Source: Octopus sinensis (taxonomy: Eukaryota). Taken from it: DNA of 64,000 nt. How positions within the stretch are numbered: position 1 is the first letter of the stretch; every line of letters starts with the position of its first letter. Below, piece after piece: positions 2,666 to 5,337 of the stretch. The position numbers were made by a program, and so were the translations under genes. The DNA lies in contig NC_043022.1 in NCBI RefSeq assembly GCF_006345805.1, positions 18,848,001 to 18,912,000 of the forward strand, in the 5' to 3' direction. The notes under the pieces were generated by a model. The model did no database searches, was not told the origin of the DNA, and worked only from the letters and a program-made list of their open reading frames with translations.

Positions 2666-3175
2666 CATCATCATCATCATCGTTTAGCGTCCGTTTTCCA
2701 TGCTAGCATGGGTTAGACGGTTCTGCTGGGGTCTGTGAAGCCCGAAGGCTTCATCAGGCCCAGTCAAATCTGGCAGTGTTTCTACGGCTGGATGCCCTTC
2801 CTAACGCCAACCACTCCGTGAGTGTAGTGGGTGCATTTTACGTGCCACCCGCACAGGTGCCAGACAGAGCTGGCAAACGGCCACGAACGGATGGTGCTTT
2901 TTATGTGCCACCTGCACGAGGGCCAGGCGAGGCTGGCAACGGACACGAACGGATGGTGCTTTTTATGTGCCACCTGCACGAGGGCCAGGCGAGGCTGGCA
3001 ACGGACACGAACGGATGGTGCTTTTTATGTGCCACCTGCACGAGGGCCAGGCGAGGCTGGCAACGGACACGAACGGATGGTGCTTTTTACGTGCCACCGG
3101 CACGAGGCCAGTCGGGGCGGCGCTGGCAACGGTCGCGAAACGGAAGGTTCTCTTACATGCCACCGGCACTGGTAA
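2666..3175 (-). mobile_element. SINE-like 'family C' with (GAT)n tail and internal ~59-bp tandem repeats
   Basis: catcatcatcgtttagcgtccg...ggatgcccttcctaacgccaacc recurs many times in the window; repeated cgaacggatggtgcttttta units. Confidence 0.75.
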
Positions 3176-3307
3176 CACATCTGCAATTTCCATTGATCGA
3201 TTTCGATTCTGATCCTTCAATTAATTATATAAAATAATGTTCCCCTCCCTTTTGCCAGTGTGTTTTTTAATTTTTCATGGTTGTTATTTTTCTTTCTTTT
3301 TTTCTAG

Positions 3308-3396
3308 AGAGAGGTAAGGTTTATGGTTGCGGAGACAATAAGATGAGCCAACTTGGTATTGGTCACCAGAGTCCTTGTGTACCAACCCCTGTCAGA
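3308..3396 (+). CDS. RCC2: RCC2 coding exon
   Basis: ctag|...|gtgag; ERGKVYGCGDNKMSQLGIGHQSPCVPTPVR; 89 nt, phase 1-0. Confidence 0.93.
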
Positions 3397-3503
3397 GTGA
3401 GTATTCATTGGATTTATATGGTCTTGTTGAATATCTGTAGCCTCATTTATCACTGTGAATTCACATGGTTTAGTGGTTGACAGTCGTATAGCTGTGAGCT
3501 CCA

Positions 3504-3663
3504 TTACTTGTTTGCTTTTGACGGCGTTCACCCAGGGCAGGTTGAGCCAGCTTCTCTGGTCCTAACGGCATCACGAACCATGGCAGCCCACGCTTGACGG
3601 TCCTGTGCGAGGTCACTGGAGATAGCGAGCCATTTGCAGTTCCGTCTGCACATACCGACCGCC
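3504..3663 (-). mobile_element. 5'-truncated RTE-clade LINE (ORF2 C-terminus and tail)
   Basis: minus strand reads KWLAISSDLAQDRQAWAAMVRDAVRTREAGSTCPG* (LAQDRxxW motif of RTE ORF2 ends), then a short UTR ending caagtaa. Confidence 0.8.
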
Positions 3664-3809
3664 TAAGGTTTATGTTTGCGGAGACAATAAGATGAGCCAA
3701 CTTGGTATTGGTCACCAGCGTCCTTGTGTACCAACCCCTGTCAGAGTGAGTCTTCATTGGATTCATATGGTCTTGTTGAATACCTGTAGCCTCATTTATC
3801 ACTGTCAAT
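3664..3809 (+). pseudogene. 5'-truncated duplicate of RCC2 exon 3308-3396 plus its donor and adjacent intron
   Basis: 146-bp direct repeat of 3315-3460 with 6 mismatches by eye; keeps the gtgag donor at 3746 but lacks the native acceptor. Confidence 0.9.
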
Positions 3810-4945
3810 GATCGAGACAAGTGTATTCTCTGCTAGAGTAGGTAGACAATCAAGAAAATGTGTGAAGATGGAAACTTTGCCGTTGCGGGCCATGACTTTG
3901 ATATCATTGGATCTACCATACCATTTACAAAGTGCATAGAAATGATTAATTTATTGTTTAGGGAGGAATGAAACCCCTGGGATAAATGAGAAGAGATGTA
4001 TTTTGTTCAGTTTTAGGGTCTCCCTACCGCTGTGAGAAATAACAGCTAGATCTCCCTCAGATCCCACCCTACCATTTTTAACTCTTTTGTTGCCATATTT
4101 CTGTTGAGATATGTTGCCTTTGGTTCAGTTAGTTTTTGAATTTAGCAGTTCCGCTGTCAATAAGGGTGGGTGTATCTGCTTGTTGATGTTCAATGTCGGT
4201 TCAGTTAAACTTTAACCGTTTAGCATTTTGTTTATTCTGTCGCTCGCGGAGTGGTTGGCGTTAGGAAGGGCATCCAGCCGTAGAAACACTGCCAGATCTG
4301 ACTGGGCCTGACGAAGCCTTCCAGCTTCACAGACCCCAGTTGACCCGTCCAACCCATGCTAGCATGGATAGCGGACGCTAAATGATGATGATGATAATGC
4401 TTATTTATTCACAATGTTTTGAATTAATCATGCATTATTTTGAAGCTTTGAGATTTTATTGACGAGATTGTTTATTTTTCGAGTGACATTGTAGGGTAAG
4501 TGTGAAGAACCAGATCTGGTTGGTTTGAACATAAGATAGGTAGAATATTTAGGTTGGATGTGGCCAGTTTAAACACTGTAGGGCTAAGCTGTAGAGATCT
4601 CAGTAGTTCTGGCGAGCTGGCAGAGACGTTAGCATGCCGGGCGAAATGTGTAGCCGTATTTTGTCTGCTGTTACGTTCTGAGTTCAAATTCCGCTGTGGT
4701 TGACTTTGCCTTTCATCCTTTCGGGGTCGATAAATTAAGTACCAGTTAAGCACTGGGGTCGATGTAATCGACTTAACCCCTTTGTCTGTCCTTGTTTGTC
4801 CTCTCTATGTTTAGCCCCTTGTGGGCAATAAAGAAATAAGTAGTTCCAACAAGCTTATGATGGCCACAGGCACTGCCCCTTTCTTCCATAATTTACAAAA
4901 TCAAAGCTCAGCTAACCCATCTTTTCTTTATTTTCCTCGATACAG

Positions 4946-5060
4946 ATCCATTACAAAGGTCCACCAGTGCGGAAAGTGGCCTGTGGCGCAGAGTTCAGTA
5001 TGATAGTTGACATACGCGGTAACCTGTACTCCTTTGGATGTCCAGAACATGGTCAGCTAG
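4946..5060 (+). CDS. RCC2: RCC2 coding exon
   Basis: acag|...|gtaag; IHYKGPPVRKVACGAEFSMIVDIRGNLYSFGCPEHGQL; 115 nt, phase 0-1. Confidence 0.96.
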
Positions 5061-5337
5061 GTAAGTTTTGTGTCTCGGCAGAGCAAACATAGCAAAGGAA
5101 ATGGGACAATGCCAGATTAAATACTCTACAGGTTCTTTTTAGGTTCTGGGCTAGGGTTTTGACTTGTGTAGCTTGGATTATGTGGGGGCGTGGCCAGAGT
5201 GTGTTGCTGGGTGCATAAACAGTGGCCAGTGTTGTTTGTTTCAAGTTTTCCATATTAACATGTCTGGACTGTTTGTTCAACAGACCACCAGAATTAGTAA
5301 TATAAAGGGCATCCAGCTGTAGGAAACTCAGACCCAA

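Follow-up and report, generated by a model that had tools for sequence, protein, structure and literature searches.

The window analysed here, a stretch of 64,000 nt of Octopus sinensis DNA, carries coding exons of an RCC1-repeat gene on its forward strand. The upstream exon (1617-1748) has AG/GT boundaries taken from the sequence, ends in phase 1 and matches Pfam RCC1 with E=7e-12. A functional exon of 89 nt (3308-3396) leads from phase 1 to phase 0; it also matches Pfam RCC1, has a strong acceptor (21 of 23 pyrimidines, 18 of them T) and is followed by the donor GTGAGT at 3397. The next exon (4946-5061) starts in phase 0. Human RCC2 (5gwn) tops the PDB matches of these last two exons with consecutive residues in order, residues 138-164 for the 89-nt exon and residues 166-203 for the next one. 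By these matches the exons fit RCC2 better than other RCC1-repeat proteins, and the host gene is assigned to RCC2. The intron upstream of the 89-nt exon contains a 62-nt tandem repeat (2830-3118, 4.7 copies, 93 % matches).

Most of the 89-nt exon is present twice. Comparison within the window gives two direct repeats of 146 nt each, at 3315-3460 and 3664-3809, which are 96 % identical and differ at six positions (3326/3675, 3370/3719, 3403/3752, 3415/3764, 3434/3783 and 3457/3806). Copy 1 (3315-3460, forward strand; 142-146 nt, the last 4 nt being ambiguous) consists of the exon from its eighth base, the donor and 64 nt of intron. Copy 2 (3664-3809, forward strand) has the donor GTGAGT at 3746 and is without the native acceptor and the first seven bases of the exon. 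Between the copies lies a 160-nt fragment of an RTE-type LINE on the reverse strand (3504-3663). The repeats adjoin the inserted DNA at both ends, directly at the 5′ end of the LINE and, on its 3′ side, by way of a filler of 43 nt at 3461-3503 (47 nt when counted from 3457). A perfect palindrome of 12 nt (3454-3465) spans the junction of copy 1 and filler. A preliminary description had reported a 5′-truncated RTE fragment of 160 nt between two 146-nt repeats with six mismatches, and a second copy that begins exactly at the LINE truncation point and holds most of the exon together with its GT donor; both observations were reproduced on re-analysis. With 3240-3503 as the query, a genome search matched the two repeat places only, and the pair can thus not be explained as a dispersed repeat that happens to be present twice.

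The LINE fragment is the 3′ end of the element, comprising the last 44 codons of the ORF, the stop and a short 3′ UTR of about 25 nt with a CAAGTAA-type tail, which is made of (CAAGTA)n and GTAA units and has no poly(A). A genome search for its family (3504-3663, reverse strand) gave 860 candidates, of which 40 were scored. The other members share the CAAGTA-type tail and extend 5′ beyond the point where the window copy stops, so that the latter is 5′-truncated and the 43 nt behind its tail do not belong to the LINE. The tail has the same end as in other family members, here at 3504, and 1 nt of microhomology is found at the truncation point (3663/3664). The reverse transcriptase of a longer member (L098) is 76 % identical to P0004, an intact relative of 1035 amino acids on an ENA contig; the homologues after P0004 in this comparison reach at most 59 % identity. 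P0004 is a single ORF with the Pfam domains Exo_endo_phos and RVT_1, it stops soon after the reverse transcriptase, and it has the same C-terminus as the window fragment. The homologues found for the reverse transcriptase of the family carried no clade name. The element appears to belong to the RTE clade, and this name rests on the architecture shown by P0004. Lepidopteran RTEs, as described in the accessible part of PMC2887409, have a short 3′ UTR that ends in simple tandem repeats, and the window LINE fits this pattern. In one other copy (L013 / L097, G000:C8:12,546,187-12,546,652) the upstream part is opposite in orientation to the tail part, as after a 5′ inversion. Elsewhere (G000:C29:8,133,283-8,137,486), about 55 units with a spacing of about 72 nt, derived from an internal piece of the LINE, stand directly before a LINE copy.

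The LINE inserted into an older element, a non-autonomous DNA transposon about 530 nt long that is bounded by terminal inverted repeats of 22 nt and may be Tigger/pogo-like. Its left terminal inverted repeat was located with a profile from 23 family copies and occurs at 3432-3453 and again at 3781-3802 (forward strand); the left end of the transposon was thus duplicated along with the exon. The 3′ part with the right terminal inverted repeat lies at 3815-4000 (forward strand) and is identical to the family majority at 143 of 177 positions, and about 300 nt of the interior are missing from the window copy. At 3783 the family majority has the copy-2 letter, and the copy-2 state is therefore ancestral at this position.

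The arrangement was compared with read-derived contigs from four of the 24 listed runs: X1, labelled as organism A and possibly the assembly's own sample, X2 (organism B), X4 (organism C) and X7 (organism D), about 80 % of X7 being read. Contigs of X1 bridge copy 1, spacer and LINE (3373-3548, with no differences) as well as LINE and copy 2 (3614-3751), so that an assembly artefact is ruled out with reads that possibly come from the assembled sample itself. The junction of LINE and copy 2 is also bridged by a contig of X2, and the contigs of X4 carry copy-2 letters, with no junction listed. In X7 the site is empty. A contig of 706 nt with a depth of 64 joins 3216-3302 to an intact acceptor and exon start and to 3664-4105, and this one contig, from one run of organism D, contains the repeat unit once and lacks both the LINE and the 43-nt spacer. 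The preliminary description had expected the intron of a related organism to be without both LINE and copy 2, and the X7 contig agrees with this. Since LINE, second unit and the 43 nt are all missing there, filler and LINE together make up the insert, of 203-207 nt, and no part of the 142-146-nt duplication is missing. The absence of 3461-3503 from copy 2, which had earlier been raised as a difficulty, is thereby explained: these nucleotides are part of the insert and not lost target DNA.

The contigs also bear on the two missense changes previously assigned to copy 2 (G>V and S>R). The C of the window at 3719, on which S>R depended, is A in the contigs of both X1 and X2; the window letter may be due to an error of the assembly or to a minor allele, and this change was not upheld. 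At 3675, the site of G>V, copy 1 has G and copy 2 has T in the window, as had been described, but C in X2. The X7 contig agrees with copy 1 at 3719, 3752 and 3764; for 3783 and 3806 no difference from copy 2 was listed. Its letter at 3675 is uncertain, this site being close to the end of the aligned piece.

The LINE and the duplication are of comparable age. The window LINE differs from its family majority at 7 of 32 CpG positions and at 3 of 113 others, the two repeats differ at 5-6 of 146 nt, and about 13 of 530 positions differ between the X7 contig and the window. As the non-CpG divergence of the LINE agrees with that of the repeat pair, the two look contemporaneous, small as these counts are.

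The filler lies between target and LINE tail, is neither LINE sequence nor interior of the old transposon, and is absent from the empty site; it arrived together with the insertion. A resemblance to the transposon interior, noticed by eye, was equalled by 127 of 500 shuffled sequences. The alignment gain of the filler against the old transposon was 12, compared with 10.2 ± 4.7 for shuffles and 32-47 for simulated real interior, and because the filler scores like shuffles it does not represent lost target DNA. No second genomic match was found by a DNA search and two patterns with up to three mismatches, an Rfam search gave nothing of note (best E=4.5), and against the window and the fetched loci the best matches were 10-11 nt. 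Local templating was not significant (p 0.08-0.44). Transduction of 3′ flanking sequence from a donor copy is unsupported as the source, there being no second genomic match, and the assembly may lack the donor. Possible sources are filler synthesis during repair, a 3′ transduction whose donor is lost, and a short foreign RNA that was reverse-transcribed ahead of a template jump. Two of the 37 family copies with short target-site duplications (TSDs), L061 and L176, have 28-30 extra nt between tail and duplication, which are smaller versions of the filler at 3461-3503.

The TSDs of the family were surveyed in loci taken from best-match lists and with an exact tail pattern, and for this reason the census leans towards young copies. 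It covers about 15 % of the 860-988 candidates: 179 loci, of which 171 reach the tail, represent 144 distinct insertions, and 141 of these have flanks of 400 nt or more (L098, L114 and L122 were dropped). With the window copy and one other, L091, left out, junction direct repeats of 10-18 nt were present in 37 of 139 copies, 33 of them 10-14 nt long, compared with 0 of 139 controls with mismatched flanks; the remaining 102 of 139 have no callable duplication. A long repeat abutting the element was found in one of the 140 other copies (95 % interval 0.02-3.9 %), or in one of 38 with a callable duplication. This copy, L091 (G000:C8, element about 18,019,959-18,020,791), is a truncated element of 833 nt flanked by a 213-nt repeat that is 93.5 % identical (about 18,019,743-18,019,956 and about 18,020,813-18,021,025), with 2 extra nt at the tail. 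About 100 nt of the unit are a dispersed repeat, and the full unit matched that locus only, among 40 scored of 710 candidates. The 213-nt unit runs into a GT/AC microsatellite. Long repeats near twelve further copies (L014, L015, L025, L078, L089, L096, L116, L134, L167, L170, L171 and L185) were rejected as microsatellites or as not abutting the element.

This LINE family thus does produce long duplications, but rarely. The duplication in the window is an exceptional accident in a family whose TSDs are short, and about 12 times longer than is usual for it. The preliminary description had pointed to long flanking repeats in some RTE-clade elements; as a trait of the family studied here they are not supported, its duplications being mostly 10-14 nt with a long one in 1 of 140 other copies. 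The reading given in that description had been made dependent on family members not having short TSDs only, and they nearly have, L091 being the exception. In C. elegans, Rte-1 is reportedly flanked by direct repeats of 150-200 bp; these were not found in our literature search, which covered few subscription papers. Unlike Rte-1, the window family has no such habit (long repeats in 1 of 140 other copies), and it is not a family in which most copies are flanked by more than 100 bp.

The empty site, the second long duplication at L091 and the matching ages support a joint origin of LINE and duplication, and it is in this part that the earlier idea of a target-primed insertion with widely staggered nicks stands, the supposed family trait being the part that is not supported. 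We consider it probable (about 0.7) that one retrotransposition event made the duplication, with strand breaks 142-146 nt apart in place of the usual 10-14 nt. Target-primed reverse transcription would have started at a break near 3460, with the filler laid down or captured before the LINE RNA was copied. Copying of this RNA from its tail would have stopped after 160 nt, the end would have been joined, with 1 nt of microhomology, to a second nick farther away (3314/3315), and gap filling would then have copied the body of the exon with its donor. The first nick would on this reading have been made by the LINE's own endonuclease, but plain target priming leaves a filler between target and tail unaccounted for, and this filler at the 3′ junction leaves room for an endonuclease-independent repair. 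In that case a host break, staggered or replication-associated and headed for a tandem duplication of 142-146 nt, would have been patched with filler and RTE cDNA. The 43-47 nt of unassigned filler, the 12-nt palindrome over the junction of copy 1 and filler (3454-3465) and the rarity of long duplications in the family (1/140) speak for such a repair. However, the LINE piece ends exactly at the tail of the family, L091 has a similar long duplication with only 2 extra nt, and local templating of the filler was not significant (p 0.08-0.44), and we regard the repair of a host break as unlikely.

Two further explanations separate the events that a single retrotransposition combines. It could be proposed that 189 nt (3315-3503) were duplicated, that the distal 43 nt were afterwards deleted from copy 2 and that organism D lost the LINE and one copy by recombination, which would make the X7 site derived. 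The letters of X7 do shift in order from copy-1 type (3719, 3752, 3764) to copy-2 type (3783, 3806), and loss of a LINE by recombination between long TSDs has been proposed in the accessible part of PMC5223499. Three events are needed, however, and the 43 nt would lie within the old transposon, to which they are not homologous; scores as low as theirs were reached by only 0-3 % of the simulated real pieces. The shift itself is also open to other readings: 3719 is coding and is likewise A in X1 and X2, 3806 falls on the boundary, and at 3783 the majority of the transposon family has the copy-2 letter. With three informative sites, the order arises by chance about one time in three. A derived X7 site is very improbable on these grounds. 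A head-to-tail tandem duplication that was followed by a LINE insertion at its junction, without a duplication of its own, can draw on the 102 of 139 family copies without a callable TSD, according to which TSD-less insertions or decayed TSDs are common. It would require insertion exactly at the junction, and X7 has neither duplication nor LINE, the ages of LINE and repeats match and L091 repeats the arrangement, so that two independent events are hardly credible. LINE and duplication arose together is the conclusion supported by these observations.

Copy 2 kept the donor, its frame is open as a cassette, and the native acceptor was not copied. The potential pseudo-exon is an in-frame cassette of 78 nt (3668-3745, forward strand) behind a weak AAG acceptor at 3666-3667, with 15 of 23 pyrimidines, four of them T. 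The effect would depend on how it was spliced. Added after the real exon, 3668-3745 gives 26 codons in frame and no stop; replacing the real exon through the AG at 3666-3667 puts copy 2 out of frame, and skipping the donor at 3397 for that at 3746 brings in stops. The AG at 3667 had been described as out of phase and copy 2 as a poison or silent exon. This is correct for replacement of the exon, and the poison label holds for replacement only, since inclusion as a cassette is in frame. With the native acceptor lost, copy 2 is most likely a silent pseudo-exon. Use of the weak AAG after the real exon would add 26 residues and probably damage a blade of the RCC1 propeller. It is a remote prospect that the LINE family makes exon-sized duplications in roughly 1 % of its insertions and that, at the same time, the 78 nt are already spliced into RCC2 mRNA as a 26-residue cassette with its acceptor at the LINE junction. 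If the cassette were spliced, the locus would document in nature, and in a form that can be dated, how a TSD duplicates an exon; the gene is a conserved mitotic one, and the duplicate is present in some lineages but not in a close relative. Unless copy 2 proves to be included in the RNA, the insertion is of little biological weight for RCC2.

The following comparisons with known elements refer to the accessible parts of the papers cited. RTE TSDs are mostly 7-15 bp, with 10-12 bp the most abundant (PMC6007223), and those of SR3 are 10-12 bp, while L1 TSDs can reach several hundred nucleotides (PMC1291365). The window family resembles RTE-clade LINEs in its ORF with endonuclease and reverse transcriptase, its short 3′ UTR with simple repeats and its heavy 5′ truncation, and in that 33 of 37 callable TSDs are 10-14 nt (PMC6007223, PMC1291365, PMC2887409). 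The octopus element RTE-2_OV is described with 1109 amino acids that include a C2H2 zinc finger, and its 3′ UTR measures about 600 nt (PMC9115989); by this description it differs from the window family, whose 3′ UTR is about 25 nt long and in whose relative P0004 no zinc finger was found. Because their search range was 10-49 bp, PMC6007223 and PMC13295347 could not count long TSDs. An RTE-type family with TSDs of 10-14 nt occasionally makes duplications of 150-200 nt, and surveys that end at 49 bp miss them.

In human L1, TSDs longer than 100 bp make up to 10 % of the events in HeLa cells and far more in NER-deficient cells; a distal nick has been proposed, and exon duplication and recombinational loss were named as consequences of large L1 TSDs (PMC5223499). 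Extremely long TSDs have been associated with 5′-truncated L1 (PMC2912911). The insertion in RCC2 is similar in that a non-LTR element is 5′-truncated, the duplication exceeds 100 bp, and such lengths are the exception in a family whose TSDs are otherwise short (PMC5223499, PMC2912911). Unlike the L1 events in cultured cells, it is inherited, old and due to an RTE-type element; two or more organism labels carry it, a relative has the empty site, and a filler of 43-47 nt lies at the 3′ junction. Large LINE TSDs and the copying of exons have thus already been described for L1, and the window adds an RTE-type case from nature, complete with empty site, of an exon-duplication route that was proposed from L1 cell culture (PMC5223499). 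Our search for a paper on exon duplication through a long TSD of a retrotransposon or non-LTR element that includes a splice site found none in the part of the literature covered. The insertion is in addition a presence/absence marker between close relatives.
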